A stretch of 30,570 nucleotides of DNA from a virus. The position numbers and the translations under genes are program-made. Location of the stretch: UHGV virus genome UHGV-0106128; one strand, written 5' to 3'. The notes beneath the pieces were generated by a model that had not been told where the DNA came from, ran no database searches, and was given only the letters and a program-made list of their open reading frames with translations. Below, piece after piece: positions 1 through 30,008 of this stretch (positions are counted from its first letter, which is position 1; each line of letters begins with the position of its first letter).

Positions 1-103
1 GTTAGCAACGGGCTGGCTGGAAGTGTTTTTTAACCTGCTGTTCTGCGTGCTGGTGATACGCGCACGCGGGAACGTCACAAAAATCTTTCCATTGTTGAGG
101 TGA
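1..103 (+). CDS. 3' end of an upstream ORF (partial), hydrophobic C-terminus; possibly holin or other lysis membrane protein
   Basis: Open frame from position 2 ending at TGA 101-103 (...LATGWLEVFFNLLFCVLVIRARGNVTKIFPLLR); sits directly upstream of the endolysin gene; function inferred from position only. Confidence 0.3.
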   Translation, partial: LATGWLEVFFNLLFCVLVIRARGNVTKIFPLLR

Positions 104-105
104 AT

Positions 106-483
106 ATGTCGGGTAAATTCAGATTCAGCCGTCGCAGTGAAAAAAATCTGGAGGGCGTTAAACCACAGCTGGTTGCTGTCGTTCGCCGTGCGCTGGAGCT
201 GACGGAGGTTGATTTCGGTATTACGGAAGGGCTGCGCACGAAAGAACGCCAGAAACAGCTGGTCGCGGAAGGGAAAAGCCAGACCATGAACAGCCGCCAC
301 CTGACCGGTGATGCGGTGGATGTTGTTGCCTGGGTTGGCAGCCAGGTGTCATGGGACTGGCCTCTGTACGAGAAAATCGCGCAGGCATTTAAGCAGGCTG
401 CCGCAGAGCTGGGAACTGCCATCGAATGGGGCGGGGACTGGAAAACACTGAAAGACGGGCCTCACTTTCAGTTGAAACGCTGA
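106..483 (+). CDS. endolysin, peptidase M15 family (zinc peptidoglycan peptidase of the VanY/L-alanyl-D-glutamate peptidase type)
   Basis: ORF track 100..483; ATG 106 preceded by GAGG 97-100; motifs SRHLTGDAVD and GGDW...DGPHFQ fit the His-Asp-His zinc site of M15 endolysins. Confidence 0.85.
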   Translation: MSGKFRFSRRSEKNLEGVKPQLVAVVRRALELTEVDFGITEGLRTKERQKQLVAEGKSQTMNSRHLTGDAVDVVAWVGSQVSWDWPLYEKIAQAFKQAAAELGTAIEWGGDWKTLKDGPHFQLKR

Positions 484-524
484 TAACCAGGTGTGTTATG
501 AGCAGAAAACACTGGACACACAGA

Positions 525-679
525 ATGCCGCGAACGGCGGCGAAATGGGCACTGGTAGCGATACTGGTGCCTTTTTTCTGGCGGGATGCGTCAGTCTGGA
601 TAAGGCGCGCCAGCTTTTCGATACATCTTCTCAGGTTTGTGAAATTGTCGACGGTGTTCGGCAGTGTATGCAGAACTGA
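525..679 (+). CDS. putative small lysis-cassette lipoprotein (Rz1/o-spanin-like), reading frame changes at T6 tract 572-577
   Basis: Frame from ATG 525 (or ATG 498) encodes MPRTAAKWALVAILVPFF, the n- and h-region of a signal peptide. After a -1 shift at T_TTT_TTC the frame of ORF 491..679 continues LAGC (lipobox) VSLDKARQLFDTSSQVCEIVDGVRQCMQN. Neither frame alone gives a convincing protein. Confidence 0.4.
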
Positions 680-852
680 TCGCCTGTAATAGCAGAATAT
701 TTTGCTGAAAAATGAAGGGTGCGTCAGCGTCCGGAAAGTATGAAATTCTGCTGCGTGTGCCAATTTTATCTTATTCATTCTAAATCTTGCCGAATCAAGA
801 TGAACTTTGATCAACTGCCTGGCGGCAAGGGGCATTAAAACAGGAGAAAATT

Positions 853-960
853 ATGTGGACACCTACAGGTGACAAGTTAATCACCGCGTTGATTGACGGC
901 AAGCCACAATACTTACGCATTGAAATGAGTGGTCAGCATGCTCGTTTGATTTGTGAGTAA
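853..960 (+). CDS. small hypothetical ORF, 35 aa (MWTPTGDKLITALIDGKPQYLRIEMSGQHARLICE)
   Basis: ATG 853 preceded by AGGAG 842-846; below the ORF-track size cutoff; no recognisable similarity. Confidence 0.25.
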   Translation: MWTPTGDKLITALIDGKPQYLRIEMSGQHARLICE

Positions 961-1083
961 CAGGCATTACAGCAGCCCTTCAGTGTGAGGGGCTGCGATA
1001 ATGTCAAAGCTCGTTATCAGCACCCGCCGCGCACCCAGCGCACTGGCCGATAGTGGGCTTTTTTATTCATAAAGCGAGGCTGT

Positions 1084-1875
1084 ATGAGCGAGAAATTGAA
1101 GATCGTCTATCGCCCGTTACAAGAACTATCTCCGTATGCACACAATGCCAGGACACACAGCCCTGAGCAGGTGGCACAACTGGTAGAAAGCATTAAGCAA
1201 TTCGGCTGGACTAATCCAGTGCTGATTGATGAAAAGGGCGAAATTATTGCGGGTCACGGTCGTGTTATGGCGGCTGAAGTGCTCAAAATGGATTCGGTTC
1301 CGGTCATTGTTCTGTCTGGTCTGACGGATGACCAAAAAAAGGCGTACCGCCTGGCAGATAATCGCCTGCCGATGAATGCTGGCTGGGATGAAGATCTGTT
1401 ACGGATGGAGCTGTCGGACCTAATCAATGCTGATTTTGATGTCTCCCTGACAGGATTCAGCCCAACAGAAATTGATGAATTGTTGACGGATGTTTTGCCA
1501 GGTACAGGAAATGAGGAGGAGCCGTACACGACGAAAATTGATACGCCTGTTTATGAGCCGTCAGGCGATAAACCGGATATCAGTGAACTGTGCGACGATA
1601 CGAAAACTCAGGAGCTGGTCAGCCGGATACGTTCGGCGTCCCTTGAGCCTGATATCGAAAAATTCCTCCTGTGCGCGGCAGAACGTCACACGGTGTTTAA
1701 TTTCAGCAGAATTGCGGACTATTACGCTCACGCCCCCGCTGAAATTCAGAACCTTTTTGAGGAGTCGGCGCTGGTGATCATTGATTATCAGCAGGCTATT
1801 GAAAATGGATTTGTCCGGATGACGCAGCGCATGGTGGAGATCATGCATGGCGGGGAGGAGGAGGAATATGCGTGA
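1084..1875 (+). CDS. ParB-like nuclease domain (ParB/Srx fold) protein
   Basis: ORF track; GAGG 1074-1077 then ATG 1084; N-terminal region VYRPLQELSPYAHNARTHSPEQVAQLVESIKQFGWTNPVLIDEKGEIIAGHGRVMAA matches the ParB N-terminal domain pattern including the GxGR box. Confidence 0.8.
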   Translation: MSEKLKIVYRPLQELSPYAHNARTHSPEQVAQLVESIKQFGWTNPVLIDEKGEIIAGHGRVMAAEVLKMDSVPVIVLSGLTDDQKKAYRLADNRLPMNAGWDEDLLRMELSDLINADFDVSLTGFSPTEIDELLTDVLPGTGNEEEPYTTKIDTPVYEPSGDKPDISELCDDTKTQELVSRIRSASLEPDIEKFLLCAAERHTVFNFSRIADYYAHAPAEIQNLFEESALVIIDYQQAIENGFVRMTQRMVEIMHGGEEEEYA

Positions 1876-2800
1876 TGATTTTTGCGCCTTTATTCTGACT
1901 CACGGGCGCCCGGACAAAGTTCTGACTTACCGGACGTTGCGTCGTGCTGGCTATACCGGAAAAGTTTTTATCGTTGTTGATGATGAAGATAAGACACGGC
2001 ATCAGTACATAGCTGAATTTGGTGAACAGGTGCTGGTGTTTTCCAAAGCCGATATAGCCAGTCGTTTTGACGAAGCCGATAATTTCGGTGATCGCCGCTC
2101 AATTTTTTACGCCCGTAATGCCTGTTTCGACCTGGCAAAACTGGTCGGGTGTAAATACTTCATTCAGCTCGATGATGATTATCACGAGTTCCAGTTTCGG
2201 GTGGATCGCAACTATGACCAGGCCTATTTCCCGATAAGAAAACTGGATGCGATCCTTTCTGAAATGCTGGCGTACTACGAATCAATACCTGCGCTTTCCA
2301 TCGCTATGTCGCAGGGCGGGGATTTTCTTGGTGACAATGGCGGCCATGCTTCGTGGGTGAAACGCAAGGCAATGAACAGCTTTATCTGTTCGGTTGATCG
2401 ACCGTTCTCATTCATGGGGCGCATTAACGAGGATGTGAATACGTACACGAATCTCGGTCGCTGTGGTGAATTGTTTATGACGATCGGTGCTGTCCAGTTA
2501 GGGCAGAAACAGACGCAGAAAAACAGCGGCGGAATGACCGAGCTGTATCTGGATTCCGGAACCTACGTTAAAAGTTTTTACTCCGTCATGTATGCGCCCT
2601 CGTGCGTAAAAATCTCACTGATGGGGGCCAGCCATAAACGCATTCACCATCAGGTCACCTGGAACAACGCTGCAGTAAAAATCCTTCACGAAAAATACAG
2701 GAAGAAGACACCCTGCATATCAATGGGGGTGACAAATGATTCCGTATTCGAAAGTCGAGTCTCTGGCAGCGTGCCGGATGACTGCACAACAAATCGCTGA
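1868..2800 (+). CDS. GT-A fold (GT2-like) glycosyltransferase, substrate unknown
   Basis: ATG 1868 preceded by GGGGAGGAGGAGGAA 1853-1866 (the ORF-track start 1847 is less likely); motifs FILTHGRPD, KVFIVVDDEDKT and ARNACFDLAKLVGCKYFIQLDDDY fit the GT2 pattern (IIPTYN-like, VVDDgStD-like, arNxGxxxAxGxYixfLDaDD-like). Confidence 0.6.
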   Translation: MRDDFCAFILTHGRPDKVLTYRTLRRAGYTGKVFIVVDDEDKTRHQYIAEFGEQVLVFSKADIASRFDEADNFGDRRSIFYARNACFDLAKLVGCKYFIQLDDDYHEFQFRVDRNYDQAYFPIRKLDAILSEMLAYYESIPALSIAMSQGGDFLGDNGGHASWVKRKAMNSFICSVDRPFSFMGRINEDVNTYTNLGRCGELFMTIGAVQLGQKQTQKNSGGMTELYLDSGTYVKSFYSVMYAPSCVKISLMGASHKRIHHQVTWNNAAVKILHEKYRKKTPCISMGVTNDSVFESRVSGSVPDDCTTNR

Positions 2801-2987
2801 CGTTCTGGATGTTGATCTGAACCGACTGAAAGAAAATCGGGAAGCAATGACAGATTTTTACGCATCCATCCGTAAGGGCAGAGCGAAAGGTGAAGCCGAA
2901 CTACGGGCGGCATTGTTTAAGCTTGCCAGAAAAGGGGATGCCTTTGCCCTGCGTGAACTACTCAGGGTGGATAAAAATCAGGACTAA
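2736..2987 (+). CDS. small HTH-like protein, possible DNA-binding or packaging accessory protein
   Basis: ORF track; GGGGGTGA before ATG 2736; MTAQQIADVLDVD resembles a helix-turn-helix; function not established. Confidence 0.45.
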   Translation: MIPYSKVESLAACRMTAQQIADVLDVDLNRLKENREAMTDFYASIRKGRAKGEAELRAALFKLARKGDAFALRELLRVDKNQD

Positions 2988-2990
2988 CTG

Positions 2991-4082
2991 ATGAGCAGAC
3001 CGGACTGGGGGGCGTTGCAGCAGGAATATATTGCTGAATACACCCGCTCCGGTGTATCTCCGGTGGCATGGTGTGAGGCAAGGGGACTGAATTACGCAAC
3101 AGCCCGTCGTTACATCAAAAAACCTCCGAAAAATGCGCAGACAGAAATGCGCAAAACTGCGCAACAAAGTGCGCAGAAAAAATCTGCGCAGACTGCGCAA
3201 AAGCGGAACGGAAAATCTCAGAAAAAAAAGCCAGTATCCGATGCGTGCCTGAATGAGGGCGACGCGGAGGAATTTTCGTTCTGCCCCGATGAATTCGGCA
3301 TTTCTGACCAGCAGGCTAAGTTTGCGATGCTTGTTGCTCAGGGGAAAAAGCCGACAGAGGCATACCGACTGGCTGGTTATGAGGGGCAAGGTGCGACAGC
3401 TAACAGCAACGCCAGCCGTATGCTTAGAAATGCCAGGGTTTATCGTGCTATCAGCTACTTCCGCAATCAGTATCAGAAACGCTATACCGCAGACCTGGAT
3501 TTACTGGTGAGTCAGTTGATGGCTATTGTCCAGGCCGACCCCAATCAGTTGGCACAATTTCGCCGTGTTAACTGCCGTTATTGCTGGGGCGAGAATCATC
3601 TCTACCAGTGGCGTGATATTGCAGAATTCGATAAGGCAGCGGCACAGGCCTCCAGAGATGGCAAACCCGAGCCGGAATATGGAGGCCTCGGCTTTGTTGA
3701 TAACGCCATACCCAATCCGGATTGTCCGAAGTGCTGCGGTGAGGGAACGGGACAGCTTTATATGGCTGATACCACTCTGCTTGATGGGGATGCGCGACAA
3801 TTATATGCAGGGGCAAAGCTCGGGAAATTTGGTGTTGAGATCCTGCTGGAGGATAAGGCTGCCGCCCGGCGCGAACTTATCAAGCTGATAATGGCGACGA
3901 AAGGAAGTTCTGCTGGTGGTGCAACTGACAGTCGCAATGATCTGGAGCTTGAAGGACTGAGGCTTCGCAACGAAAAGCTGCGCACTGAGATTGAAAACCT
4001 CAAAAAAGGCGTGGGTGGTGAGAATAACGAAATAATTATCCACAACTCTCTGCCGATGCCGGGAGTGGATAATGTCGATTGA
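2991..4082 (+). CDS. terminase small subunit (P27-type), with a C-terminal Cys4 cluster and coiled coil
   Basis: ORF track; AGGA then ATG 2991; N-terminal HTH; segment QQAKFAMLVAQGKKPTEAYRLAGYEGQGATANSNASRMLRNARV resembles the terminase small-subunit core; lies directly upstream of and overlapping the large subunit. Confidence 0.7.
   Translation: MSRPDWGALQQEYIAEYTRSGVSPVAWCEARGLNYATARRYIKKPPKNAQTEMRKTAQQSAQKKSAQTAQKRNGKSQKKKPVSDACLNEGDAEEFSFCPDEFGISDQQAKFAMLVAQGKKPTEAYRLAGYEGQGATANSNASRMLRNARVYRAISYFRNQYQKRYTADLDLLVSQLMAIVQADPNQLAQFRRVNCRYCWGENHLYQWRDIAEFDKAAAQASRDGKPEPEYGGLGFVDNAIPNPDCPKCCGEGTGQLYMADTTLLDGDARQLYAGAKLGKFGVEILLEDKAAARRELIKLIMATKGSSAGGATDSRNDLELEGLRLRNEKLRTEIENLKKGVGGENNEIIIHNSLPMPGVDNVD
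3134..3199. repeat. array of six TGCGCA hexamers at 9-15 bp spacing inside the terminase small-subunit gene
   Basis: TGCGCA at 3134, 3148, 3158, 3170, 3185 and 3194; encodes the Q/K/A-rich linker TEMRKTAQQSAQKKSAQTAQK. Confidence 0.6.
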
Positions 4083-5400
4083 AATCTACCTCCCAAAACC
4101 TCATGAGGGGCAAATAGCTGCATGGACGGCGGCAATAGAGGAACGCTTCCACGCGGTATGCTGTGGTCGTCGCTGGGGTAAAACGGTGATGCTGGTAAAC
4201 ATCGCTACCAGTTTCGCTACGCGGAAATTTGCCGTTCCTACCACCGGGCAACTTATCGCGGGTAGGGTGGGGATTTTTACCGCACAATACCGCCAGTACC
4301 AGGAAATCTGGGATGAAATTAGCGCCGTTCTGCAACCGCTGATCCTCAGCCAGTCAAAAAATGAAAAGCGCATTATTCTCCGTAATGGGGGGCGCATCGA
4401 CTTTTGGGTAACGGACAATAACAAACTGGCCGGGCGTGGGCGTAAATATCACGCTGTGCTGATTGATGAGGCAGCATTCACTAAATCGCCGGAAATGCTC
4501 GAGGAAATCTGGCCCCGAGCTATACGCCCGACGCTTGTCGATTACCGCGGCTGTGCGTGGGTATTTTCCACACCAAACGGTATCGACGAGAGCAATTTTT
4601 TCTACGCGATATGCCACGATGAATCCCTGGGATTTGTCATGCACCATGCGCCAACTTCATCGAATCCGTATATTCCGAAAGAAGAACTGGAGGAAACGGA
4701 GAAGAAATCCGATCCGCGCGTCTGGCAGCAGGAATATCTTGCAGAGTTCGTGGACTGGTCCAAAGACGCGTTACTCGATGTCGATAAGCTGCTGGTGGAC
4801 GGTCAGCCGATTGAGATGCCGCCGTACTGCGACATGATTTTCGCAGTGATGGATACGGCGCTGAAAGGCGGGACCGAAAATGATGGTACTGGCGTGGTGT
4901 ATTTCGCTTATGAGTCAACGTATTCGGACGAGCCAAAACTGACGATTATTGACTGGGATGTGACGCAAATTAAAGCGTCATTGCTTCCTGAATATATCCC
5001 CGGCGTTTATGACAACCTCGAGCGCCTCGCGAAATTATGCCGTCCGCGTCTGGGCTGCCAGGGCATTTTTATGGAAGACGCCGCGATGGGGGCAATCCTC
5101 AACCAGAAGGCGGAAACCGAAGGCTGGGATATGACGCCGATTAAATCGGCACTAACCAGCAAAGGTAAAGACGAACGGGCGGTGATGGCATCCAGCTACC
5201 ACTATCAGGGGATGTGCAAAATCGTCCGGGAGGCTTACGACAAGACCGTTTCATTCAAACGTACCACCGCAAACCACCTCATAAAACAAATCGCCGGATT
5301 CCACCTGGCGGATAAAAACGCGCATAAACGTGCTGATGACCTTTTCGATTGTTACACCTATGGGTTGATCATCGCGCACGGTAATTACGCGGCGTTGTAA
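4072..5400 (+). CDS. terminase large subunit
   Basis: ORF track; Walker A-like CCGRRWGKT, Walker B-like AVLIDEAA, C-terminal nuclease-like region; overlaps the small-subunit stop (ATG 4072, TGA 4080-4082). Confidence 0.9.
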   Translation: MSIEIYLPKPHEGQIAAWTAAIEERFHAVCCGRRWGKTVMLVNIATSFATRKFAVPTTGQLIAGRVGIFTAQYRQYQEIWDEISAVLQPLILSQSKNEKRIILRNGGRIDFWVTDNNKLAGRGRKYHAVLIDEAAFTKSPEMLEEIWPRAIRPTLVDYRGCAWVFSTPNGIDESNFFYAICHDESLGFVMHHAPTSSNPYIPKEELEETEKKSDPRVWQQEYLAEFVDWSKDALLDVDKLLVDGQPIEMPPYCDMIFAVMDTALKGGTENDGTGVVYFAYESTYSDEPKLTIIDWDVTQIKASLLPEYIPGVYDNLERLAKLCRPRLGCQGIFMEDAAMGAILNQKAETEGWDMTPIKSALTSKGKDERAVMASSYHYQGMCKIVREAYDKTVSFKRTTANHLIKQIAGFHLADKNAHKRADDLFDCYTYGLIIAHGNYAAL

Positions 5401-5418
5401 AAAATCAGGATATTTTTG

Positions 5419-6855
5419 ATGGCAGAGATCGAGATTACTGGCGGCCTCGGTTCAGCACTGATGCGTATTCTTGAGGCTGAAGAAATTCAGCCGGGAACCG
5501 ATATTGGCTATGAATTGTGTAAGCTGCTGTGGCAATTCCATCCTCTGGGCGGAAAACTTGTCGAAAAACCCATACTTATGGCGATGTGTAAGCCGCGTCA
5601 GTACAACGTGGAGACAGACCCTGACGAGCGGGTTGTGCGGCGTTTCCAGGAGGTATGGGAACGTATGAAGGTTAACGAGAAGATTAAAAATCTGTTTTTT
5701 CTGTCTCGTTGCTACGGTGCCGCAGCGATCGGCGTGGGCACCGACAGTGTTCCATGTCGTGAGCCGCTTCCGACATTCGGACTGACAGAAGATGATGTGT
5801 ATATCAACGCGTGGGACCCGTTGAACGCTTCTGGTTCGATGGTGACTGACCAGAACCCAAACAGCCCGTTTTTCCAGGAAGCCAATAAAAAGCTGAAGAT
5901 TGGCGGAAAAGACTGGCATCCGTCACGCACACTGAAAATTTTCAATGGCACACCGATTTATCTGGAGTTTCAGAGTTCATCGTTCGGATTCACCGGGCGA
6001 AGCGTGTTTCAGCGTGTTCTTTATTCCCTGAAATCCTATATCAATACGATGGAGGCGAATGATCTCGTCAGCCAGAAGGCAGGCGTACTGGTGGCTAAAG
6101 TTGTGCAGTATGGTTCGAAACTTGACGGGATCATGGCTGCCGCCACGGGACGAAAAAGGGAAAATGTCAAAGAGGCAAAAAATAAAGGTGTGCTTAGTAT
6201 CGGGAAGGATGAGGACGTTACCTCGCTGAATTTACAAAACATCGATGGCGCGCTAAATGCCGCCCGCGACAACATTATTTCTGATATTGCATCAGGTAGC
6301 GATGTTCCCGCGATTCTCATCAAGGAGGAGGCTTTCTCGAATGGTTTCGGTGAAGGAACTGAGGATTCGAAAGCTATCAGCCAGTATATCGATGGTGTAC
6401 GCCAGCAGATTGAACCTGTGATGGATTATTTCGAACGCCTGGTGCAGTACATCGCCTGGAACGAGGAATTTTATCAGTCGCTGAAAAATGATTACCCGGA
6501 CATCATAACTGATGACTATAAAACCACGTTTTACCAGTGGCGACGTGAATTTACCGCGACATGGCAGGAGCTGGTGGAGGAGTCGCCGGACAAACGCCGG
6601 GAAAGCGACAGTAAAGTGATTCAACAGGCGATAGCACTTTTCTCTGCCGTGTCGCCACAGGTTGATCCTGAAAACCGTGCCGCCGTCACTGAATGGCTGG
6701 CAAGCCTTGTTAATGCCACGCAAACCTATGGCGAAGCTCCACTCATCATTGATGTGGACGCGCTGGCGAATTATGAACCACCGAAGCAGGAGACGCCTGA
6801 TGGCAATTTCCAGCCGGGCGGTGAGGAAGAAGAAACGGATCAGGACGCTGTATGA
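5419..6855 (+). CDS. portal protein (putative)
   Basis: ORF track 5416..6855; AGGA 5407-5410 then ATG 5419; size (478 aa), position directly after the large terminase, acidic C-terminus. Confidence 0.65.
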   Translation: MAEIEITGGLGSALMRILEAEEIQPGTDIGYELCKLLWQFHPLGGKLVEKPILMAMCKPRQYNVETDPDERVVRRFQEVWERMKVNEKIKNLFFLSRCYGAAAIGVGTDSVPCREPLPTFGLTEDDVYINAWDPLNASGSMVTDQNPNSPFFQEANKKLKIGGKDWHPSRTLKIFNGTPIYLEFQSSSFGFTGRSVFQRVLYSLKSYINTMEANDLVSQKAGVLVAKVVQYGSKLDGIMAAATGRKRENVKEAKNKGVLSIGKDEDVTSLNLQNIDGALNAARDNIISDIASGSDVPAILIKEEAFSNGFGEGTEDSKAISQYIDGVRQQIEPVMDYFERLVQYIAWNEEFYQSLKNDYPDIITDDYKTTFYQWRREFTATWQELVEESPDKRRESDSKVIQQAIALFSAVSPQVDPENRAAVTEWLASLVNATQTYGEAPLIIDVDALANYEPPKQETPDGNFQPGGEEEETDQDAV

Positions 6856-27980: not shown

Positions 27981-28934
27981 TCAACAGTTACTAGTGTGTT
28001 TCTTGTTATAATCGTCAAGTAAAAAATCTTTGTGTTTTTCAGCCAGTAAACCTACTTCCCCCCATTTCAAAATATGTGTCCAGTATCCCATGCCGACAGA
28101 TGATATTGGAGCGTAAAAAATAATAATTCTATTTTTTGCATTTTCGTCCGTTATACCACGAGAAATTGCAGTGTTATTTTCTATTCGCACTCTGAAATCA
28201 GGATAATAACAAGAACCTTTTAATTTTAACCATACGGTTGAATGATTAGTATGTTGTTCTATTGAACTTATTTCACCAAAATAAAACCCCGGTTCTTCTT
28301 GTTCAGAGCGGATATCAGAAATACTTTTTAATGCATCGCAAAAAATATAACTGCGAGCGAGACTAGTGCCAGTGGTGATAAATATCTCTTTATAGTAGTT
28401 TTCTTGAAAGTTAGTACATAGAGCTTGCACGCTTGTTATCTTACTGGGCAGATTGAATGTTTCACCTTGATGACGAGAGATGGGAATTTCAACAAATACC
28501 CCATTTTTACTTTCAAAGTACATTTCCGTTCGAGTGGCGGAAGAATCTGTATTATCACGATATACAAGTTCTGGTCGTTCCTGCATGAATCCGGATATGA
28601 TAATGACATCATTGTCGCTAACAGCTTTTTGGGCTTCTTCTTCACTAGAATAGCGTTTCCCGATAATAGCTCCGCTTCTCAACAAACAAAAAGGAGCATT
28701 TGGATTTGGGTAGTGGCGGAAGAGAGCTTCTCGCCCGTCAGTCATAATCGTTATACTTGACTCTGATGGTATACGATTAAGTGGCTCATAACATTGGGGA
28801 CAAATGAGATGATCTTTCATTTCTTCTTGATATTCTAATGGTCCAACACTTGTACGAACTAACTGTGCTGTACTGTGTATGCTTTTATCCCATACAGGAT
28901 CGAAATAAGCATAGGCAATGCGGCGGCTAGTCAT
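27981..28934 (-). CDS. hypothetical 317-aa protein, AT-rich orphan cargo at the prophage end; no recognisable domain
   Basis: ORF track; minus-strand ATG at 28934 with GGAG 8 nt upstream; visibly AT-rich codon usage unlike the structural genes; single CPQC motif. Confidence 0.7.
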   Translation of the reverse strand: MTSRRIAYAYFDPVWDKSIHSTAQLVRTSVGPLEYQEEMKDHLICPQCYEPLNRIPSESSITIMTDGREALFRHYPNPNAPFCLLRSGAIIGKRYSSEEEAQKAVSDNDVIIISGFMQERPELVYRDNTDSSATRTEMYFESKNGVFVEIPISRHQGETFNLPSKITSVQALCTNFQENYYKEIFITTGTSLARSYIFCDALKSISDIRSEQEEPGFYFGEISSIEQHTNHSTVWLKLKGSCYYPDFRVRIENNTAISRGITDENAKNRIIIFYAPISSVGMGYWTHILKWGEVGLLAEKHKDFLLDDYNKKHTSNC

Positions 28935-29117
28935 GAGTTATCTCCGGTAAGGTAGAATATATAGGATTCGAACAAAGTTTTGGCTGTTGTATTGTTTGAG
29001 CAATTACTAAGCCTATTTTGCATAGTAACCAAACAAACATATTTGTTACAACCCATTTACATAAATTTAAGAATAAAAATATGTGCAAACGGCCTTAATT
29101 TAGCTTGAATACTGAGG

Positions 29118-29161
29118 GCAAAAATGGGGCAAATGCCGTAAAAGGTGCAAAAATGGGGCAA
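29118..29161. repeat. 15-bp perfect direct repeat GCAAAAATGGGGCAA (29118-29132 and 29147-29161); candidate integrase arm-type or operator sites
   Basis: Seen directly; a third, inverted copy of the GGGCAAAAAT core at 29251-29263 abuts the ttcA fragment. Confidence 0.5.
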
Positions 29162-29263
29162 CAAAAATGTTGGTTATTGTGGTTTGTTGTAGTTGTTGAT
29201 GTGTCTTAATTTATTGAAAAATAAATAAAATACTTATGCGTCAGATAGTTGTGATTTTTGCCC

Positions 29264-29317
29264 TTACTTGTTCAGGTTGTATTGTTCTTTCTTACTAATT
29301 TCTTGATTTTGCGACAT
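29264..29317 (-). pseudogene. ttcC: 5' fragment of ttcA (ttcC-like remnant) marking the prophage/chromosome junction (attR)
   Basis: Minus-strand ATG at 29317 encodes MSQNQEISKKEQYNLNK then TAA (29264-29266); KKEQYNLNK matches the TtcA N-terminus as I recall it, and the match breaks exactly where the GGGCAAAAAT motif starts. Confidence 0.55.
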
Positions 29318-29460
29318 TTAAAAGCGACTCAATTCGTTATATGGCATCAGAAGAGTATGCGTCATGCCGGAACGCCCAGCATAAGAAATCTGATATAAAA
29401 ACTGTGGCGTGTATGGTACGGATTAGAGGGGAAAATGTCAGCACATTTGCGAAATGAATC

Positions 29461-29487
29461 AAAAAGCCCGCAGCAATGTGCGGGCGT
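29461..29487 (-). terminator. rho-independent terminator downstream of uspF
   Basis: Plus-strand AAAAA-GCCCGCA-GCAATG-TGCGGGC; on the minus strand this is a stem-loop followed by a U-run. Confidence 0.55.
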
Positions 29488-29492
29488 TAGTG

Positions 29493-30008
<516 letters not shown>

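Follow-up and report, generated by a model that had tools for sequence, protein, structure and literature searches.

The window analysed here, 30,570 nucleotides of a viral genome (UHGV-0106128), passes from phage into bacterial DNA near its right end, and a set of short repeats lies just before the junction. The question raised by this locus is what reads these repeats. The original prediction took two direct repeats and an inverted copy for arm-type and core-type sites of a tyrosine integrase, with operators of the adjacent orphan gene as the alternative.

The right end of a Rac-type prophage in ttcA

A full-length Rac-type prophage has integrated into the 5' end of ttcA, and the end of the window is its right junction (attR). 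E. coli strains C5 and F2_407_2_2 match positions 28900-29500 at 100% identity, and the first 6 kb of the window are 100% identical to GmM062, the best-matching genome. In C5 and GmM062, the other end of the element, 49-54 kb away, consists of xisR, intR and then ttcA; the junction in the window is therefore the attR of a Rac-type prophage. A tail-fibre gene, a tail-fibre assembly gene and an orphan ORF of 317 aa are found upstream of uspF and the ompN fragment that follows it. Table 1 lists the features of the attachment site and its surroundings.

Rac is among the most studied cryptic prophages, and its relatives occupy ttcA in about one third of complete E. coli genomes, with cargo that includes sitABCD and nleC. 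Of 5426 complete E. coli genomes, 1872 carry the int-distal arm of the attachment site (29113/29117-29267), at ~78-87% identity. The Rac prophage of K-12, on which the core and XisR binding have been defined (PMC4632033), shares the ttcA site and the 26-bp core with the window prophage, and the two differ very little in IntR and the int-proximal arm. The window prophage differs from it in being full-length (~49 kb), in its late region and its cargo, and in its attR arm, which is ~82% identical.

Table 1. Features at the attR end of the window (positions in the window; arm-type and IHF-like sites are predictions)
Feature	Position	Strand	Remarks
Int-distal attP arm, whole	29113-29267	plus	counterpart of the lambda P arm; from alignments
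Int-distal arm and core of the attachment site	29113-29293		
Predicted arm-type site P1a, AGGGCAAA	29115-29122	plus	homology block of all attR arms begins here
Predicted arm-type site P1b, GGGGCAAA	29126-29133	plus	11 bp after P1a
Predicted arm-type site P2a, GGTGCAAA	29144-29151	plus	18 bp after P1b
Predicted arm-type site P2b, GGGGCAAC	29155-29162	plus	11 bp after P2a
IHF-like site, TTTCAATAAATTA	29207-29219	minus	consensus scan, 1 mismatch to WATCAANNNNTTR; weak by itself
Inverted motif copy (AGGGCAAAAAT on the minus strand)	29254-29264	minus	4 bp from core
ttcC, displaced original ttcA 5' end	29264-29317	minus	ATG at 29315-29317, 17 codons
26-bp core common with ttcA, attR copy TTGTTCAGGTTGTATTGTTCTTTCTT	29268-29293		
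Exact IHF consensus, AATCAAGAAATTA	29296-29308	minus	bacterial side, inside the ttcA 5' fragment
uspF	29493-29927	minus	near the window end, followed by an ompN fragment

Identity with ttcA begins at the first base of the 26-bp core, which has been described as the common attL/attR sequence of Rac in K-12 (PMC4632033), and the displaced original ttcA start comes after the core. The stop codon of ttcC is, as read from the sequence, created in phage DNA; the K-12 annotation lists ttcC as a pseudogene. Comparison with the empty ttcA site, which the original prediction had proposed as a check, bore out this junction: the attB sequence rebuilt from the K-12 flanks was found in one piece, 425/425 identical, in empty-site strains. 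The attL and attR cores differ at positions 16-18 in GmM062 (ATC vs TGT) and at positions 16-17 in C5, and the crossover must therefore take place within the left 15 bp of the core, TTGTTCAGGTTGTAT (29268-29282). No convincing inverted repeat that would define core-type sites was found inside the core.

Several observations concern the wider neighbourhood. The orphan ORF (27981-28934, minus strand) lies between the att arm and the gene for tail-fibre assembly, in a cargo slot that holds sitABCD, nleC or pinR/ynaE in other Rac-type prophages. Its product has no match in Pfam, PADLOC or PHROGs, and its homologues form only 24 clusters, all 'hypothetical', scattered over Enterobacterales and one Pseudomonas. 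No Rfam family scored above threshold in 28800-29600. At the opposite end of the window (1-6000), an anti-CBASS Acb1 family protein and a ParB/Srx-domain protein are annotated in the matching genomes, immediately before the terminase genes. Between ttcC and uspF, a fossil integrase fragment at ~29365-29448 (minus strand) matches IntR residues 345-373 with 15/29 identical; a clearer fossil (residues 344-405, 69% identical) is present to the right of attR in the Enterobacter-type viral contigs L242, L243 and L250. The fossil integrase is preceded by a decayed arm, ATGGGGCACCAGTGGGGCAAA. Judged from these two remnants, the 'native' region upstream of ttcA looks like the ancient, decayed attL of an earlier Rac-type element.

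A tandem site in both arms of the attachment site

Two perfect 15-bp direct repeats, GCAAAAATGGGGCAA, are indeed present at 29118-29132 and 29147-29161, 29 bp apart from start to start. The 15-mer is not the repeating unit, as had been assumed; each copy is made up of two 8-bp sites placed 11 bp apart, that is, a tandem pair. The four sites follow the consensus GGGGCAAA and start at 29115, 29126, 29144 and 29155 (spacing, 11/18/11 bp). In other Rac arms the 15-mers are imperfect and their period is 30 bp, vs 29 bp in the window. The sites vary somewhat: P2a reads GGTGCAAA in the window vs GGGGCAAA in most other arms, and GGGACAA occurs in O157-type and TUM9757 arms. The attR arm of K-12 contains the same four sites (L004, 25808-25856).

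The motif is strongly concentrated in the arm. G[GT]GCAA[AC] occurs five times in the 167-bp arm, where the composition of the remaining window would predict 0.10 occurrences (Poisson P ~1e-7), and GGGCAAA three times vs 0.05 expected (P ~2e-5). The sequence GGGCAAAAAT, allowing at most one mismatch, has 12 matches in the window vs 4.2 expected, three of the 12 falling within this 150 bp. The 26-bp core contains no match to GGGGCAAA. That the repeats are a chance product of AT-rich intergenic DNA, for which the base composition of the region and the A-run in the motif might speak, can practically be dismissed given this enrichment (P 1e-5 to 1e-7) and the recurrence of the motif in the other arm and in diverged relatives.

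The number of int-distal GGGGCAAA sites in E. coli elements ranges from 2 to 5, in 11-bp steps: PKF8 (L088) has five, L262 three and the plasmid pAPEC-O2-ColV (L253) two. A site number that changes by 11 bp means that the helical phase is kept. The variation is probably due to slippage or recombination between the repeats.

The original prediction had also suggested looking for the motif at the left end of the prophage, and it is there. In GmM062, C5 and K-12, attL consists of the core, the ttcA ATG, ...AAATGGGGCAAATTGGGGGCAAAC and the intR stop; a pair of GGGGCAAA sites, oriented like those of the window and with a spacing of 11 bp, is located ~49 and ~60 bp past the core, just ahead of the intR stop. 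A search of the C5 left end with the exact 10-mer GGGCAAAAAT returned nothing above chance, and the common motif GGGGCAAA was seen on reading the junction. An unbiased comparison of the two arms gave the same motif: all common 7- and 8-mers are pieces of AAATGGGGCAAAT, apart from a stray 7-mer, TGATTTT, and this degree of k-mer sharing was equalled in at most five of 2000 shuffles. Tandem motif pairs were found nowhere else in ~62 kb comprising the C5 prophage, the window and flanks, or in the 27.5 kb of K-12 Rac.

The motif is likewise present in attP, where the two arms are contiguous, as seen in the IMG/VR contig L075 and in plasmid pAPEC-O2-ColV; the attP reconstructed from attL and attR is therefore a real molecule. 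Nearly all IMG/VR matches to IntR are prophage calls that end at the int stop, and only L075 has a contiguous attP; none was found among these matches for the Enterobacter-type integrase. Two "phage" records that matched the arm proved to be prophage regions with host flanks, and were rejected as free attP.

An O157:H7 strain (7.1_Anguil, L005) was rejected as an attL/attR pair, because the integrase found opposite its attR arm is of the mlrA site. In this genome, the attR arm adjoins uspF and nleC fills the cargo slot, and the prophage ends at its other side in a different integrase abutting mlrA, apparently as the result of a large rearrangement between two prophages. The mlrA-site integrase is PF12167-like, and no obvious tandem motif was found by its stop codon.

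On pAPEC-O2-ColV (NC_007675.1, ~2990-3265), the contiguous Rac-type attP follows the sitABCD operon of this ColV virulence plasmid, and comprises an arm with only two sites left, then the core and the int-proximal arm, and lastly a truncated 3' end of int. Such an arrangement suggests that the plasmid-borne sit locus derives from the excised form of a Rac-type phage.

Comparison between attR arms points to the sites as the conserved element. Homology begins exactly at the first site, beside five unrelated cargoes (the orphan gene, sitABCD, a tail-fibre assembly gene, ynaM/pinR and nleC). Column conservation, computed over 22 distinct arms of both lineages, has a mean of 1.68 bits in the 32 columns of the sites vs 1.20 elsewhere in the arm; when four blocks of eight columns were drawn at random 10,000 times, only 61 draws reached the mean of the sites. 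The best conserved columns fall in the GGGGC block of the sites. Integrases 70-74% identical to IntR occupy the same place at ttcA in Enterobacter, Erwinia and Citrobacter. In their int-proximal arms, which cannot otherwise be aligned with the E. coli arm, GGGGCATA-N3-GGGGCAA is retained, and its distances to the ttcA ATG and to the int stop are those of E. coli. In the far arm of the Enterobacter type, available from viral contigs, two tandem pairs are conserved (AGGGGCAAATTTAGGGGCAAAAAT...AGGGGCAAAAAAAGGGCA; spacing, 12/19/11 bp), and the DNA outside them has diverged. The 5' flank of the sites is lineage-specific and alike in both arms (ATGGGGCA vs TAGGGGCA). Because the distant relatives share one ancestral att site, this conservation is not fully independent evidence.

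IntR (411 aa) has the domains that a reader of such sites would need. Residues 5-69 match the Pfam family Arm-DNA-bind_2 (PF12167, E=9e-27), and the catalytic domain matches Phage_integrase (PF00589, E=6e-23); among solved structures, IntR is matched via the catalytic domain only (Tn1549 Int, E=3e-7). PF12167, also known as DUF3596, marks the arm-binding domain of the IntBPP-1 subgroup, which includes the integrases of Bordetella BPP-1, Gifsy-2 and Stx2a phages (Smyshlyaev et al., PMC8138268), and IntR shares this hallmark. The direct repeats thus come through all available computational tests as tyrosine-integrase arm-type sites: both arms, attP, relatives and the arm-binding domain. We consider it likely (probability roughly 0.8) that the four direct and the two int-proximal GGGGCAAA-type sites are arm-type sites for the N-terminal arm-binding domain of IntR.

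The inverted copy and other readings of the repeats

The inverted copy of the motif is real: AGGGCAAAAAT at 29115-29125 and ATTTTTGCCCT at 29254-29264 form a perfect 11-nt inverted repeat. It had been described as directly abutting the ttcA homology. It is close, ending 4 bp (TTAC) before the identity begins at 29268, and 4-18 bp separate it from the 15-bp segment in which the crossover must fall. This position, the perfection of the repeat and the fact that 15 of the 19 distinct attR arms of E. coli type have it intact (8/10 and 7/9 in two alignments) speak for a role as the left core-type site or as one more arm-type site, the fifth and inverted. We regard either role as doubtful. The copy is changed in two arms (O157-type L005 and L090), and L256 has GTAGTTTTTGCCC in its place. 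Enterobacter-type arms lack it, and in the O157-type and TUM9757 arms it is degenerate beside direct sites that persist. Across lineages its conservation equals the background (1.21 vs 1.20 bits). The assignment as a core-type site, in particular, found no support: attB reads ACGTTTTTGTAAT at the matching position and has no counterpart of the copy, and to the right of the crossover segment there is no inverted partner, as a core-type pair would need. Lambda Int uses one domain for core-type sites and another for arm-type sites, so a copy of the arm motif is unlike what would be expected of a core-type site. The inverted copy could be an extra arm-type site, overlap with the left core-type site, or have no function.

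At the position of the inverted copy, E. coli arms have GGGCAAAAATCAC on the minus strand and Enterobacter-type arms (L241-L252) have TTGACAAAATCAGC on the plus strand. The latter is an A-run element that loosely resembles the inverted copy in the opposite orientation, and the resemblance may be a coincidence.

For the direct repeats themselves, a different reading is that the tandem pairs act via the host nucleoid protein Fis, or via intrinsic curvature of their A-tracts, without the integrase. Each pair spans 15 bp from G to C with an A/T-rich centre, GGGCAAAAATGGGGC, and is one mismatch from what we take to be the degenerate Fis consensus; the A-tracts are phased at 11 bp, and a Fis site is present in the corresponding arm of lambda. 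The best conserved columns, however, are those of the GGGGC block, which neither Fis nor curvature needs, and the first pair of the Enterobacter arm has a 12-bp spacing that breaks the 15-bp Fis frame. We therefore consider an action without the integrase improbable. Fis binding or curvature would, moreover, be compatible with binding of the integrase to the same pairs, and the A-tracts in the sites could contribute curvature instead of, or besides, specific contacts.

The repeats might instead be bound by the excisionase, XisR. Direct repeats in a single att arm are a common target of recombination directionality factors, and the Xis sites of lambda are in the int-distal arm. XisR (Pfam DUF1233) shifts a 294-bp AttR probe from K-12 (PMC4632033). 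When the published primers are mapped on K-12, this bound probe corresponds to L004 25790-26083. The control probe, AttM, which XisR left unshifted (PMC4632033), corresponds to L004 25669-25959; its last base immediately precedes the core, and it contains all four direct sites as well as the inverted copy. XisR therefore does not bind the repeats, as far as one published gel shift can tell. The presence of the motif in the int-proximal arm as well would also be unusual for excisionase sites. Taken together, we consider the excisionase a very improbable reader of the repeats, more so than Fis.

The alternative offered by the original prediction was that the repeats are operators, or promoter elements, of the orphan gene, whose start codon is ~180-230 bp downstream of them. 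This reading is refuted by the arms of other genomes: the arm follows sitA, a tail-fibre assembly gene, ynaM/pinR or nleC with the same first base, so that it is conserved beside five different cargoes with homology running from the first repeat. The segment that adjoins the orphan gene (28935-29112) is not common to the other arms, and a scan of 28850-29300 gave no sigma-70-like promoter on the strand in question. We attach next to no weight to it.

A predicted attP of the lambda type

If the sites are indeed bound by IntR, the attP of the Rac-type phage would span ~250 bp. Its outer end would hold four arm sites, at -153 to -106 relative to the core; an IHF-like element would come next, and then the core. 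On the int side there would be a second IHF-type element, arm sites at +49 and +60, and the int stop. The int-distal sites form two tandem pairs, with 11 bp within a pair and 18-19 bp between pairs. By analogy with lambda Int, IntR protomers may bridge arm sites and core sites, with IHF bending the DNA at TAAnnnnTTGAA in the int-distal arm and, we infer, at TTGAT between the core and the int-proximal sites. The outcome would be a ~250-bp intasome recombining within TTGTTCAGGTTGTAT.

The TAAnnnnTTGAA block (29207-29219) averages 1.55 bits and is kept in the E. coli and Enterobacter lineages. The int-proximal TTGAT element has one mismatch here vs an exact match in K-12, for which an IHF peak has been published (PMC8407004). 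The exact IHF consensus of Table 1, on the bacterial side, has been noted in ttcC of K-12; in that study, IHF gave a peak at the attL counterpart alone (PMC8407004).

It is only by analogy with lambda that the sites can be read as an array. The attP of lambda contains the arm-type sites P1, P2 and P'1-P'3, together with sites for IHF, Xis and Fis. The likeness extends to the overall size (~250 bp), to a long arm away from int (to -153) and a short arm by int (to ~+68 past the core), to tandem arm sites about one helical turn apart, to a candidate IHF-type element between the core and the int-proximal sites, and to a separate N-terminal arm-binding domain in the integrase. The site GGGGCAAA is unrelated to lambda's C/AAGTCACTAT, Rac has four distal and two proximal predicted sites vs two and three in lambda, a reversed balance, and the arm-binding domain belongs to PF12167 in IntR vs PF09003 in lambda. 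Unlike in lambda, moreover, the published XisR gel shift maps outside the int-distal arm, and the Rac sites are predictions. The attP of mycobacteriophage L5 has arm-type sites as adjacent pairs on both arms; paired arm sites are thus common to L5 and Rac, whereas the integrase subgroup, the host and the site sequence differ.

A full-text search, with older subscription literature outside its reach, found no published description of arm sites for IntR or for any other PF12167 integrase. The predicted arm-type sites of Rac thus seem to be undescribed before, although the type of biology is ordinary. A bolder version holds that the GGGGCAAA array is the first arm-site code of the PF12167/IntBPP-1 class and that the inverted copy is a functional arm-type site, giving an intasome and directionality control of a non-lambda kind. 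With a functional inverted copy and XisR acting on the core or bacterial side, both would be unlike lambda's. We think this unlikely, and less probable than a role for the inverted copy taken by itself.

As it stands, the finding changes no concept: it would be the lambda paradigm with another site sequence and another family of arm-binding domain, in a class of integrases that includes those of Gifsy-2 and Stx phages. For the biology of Rac, a full attP of ~250 bp with six predicted integrase sites and a 15-bp crossover segment provides concrete targets for studying the control of excision. The definition of attP may also serve integration tools based on IntR and the base-exact annotation of prophage ends at the ttcA hotspot.
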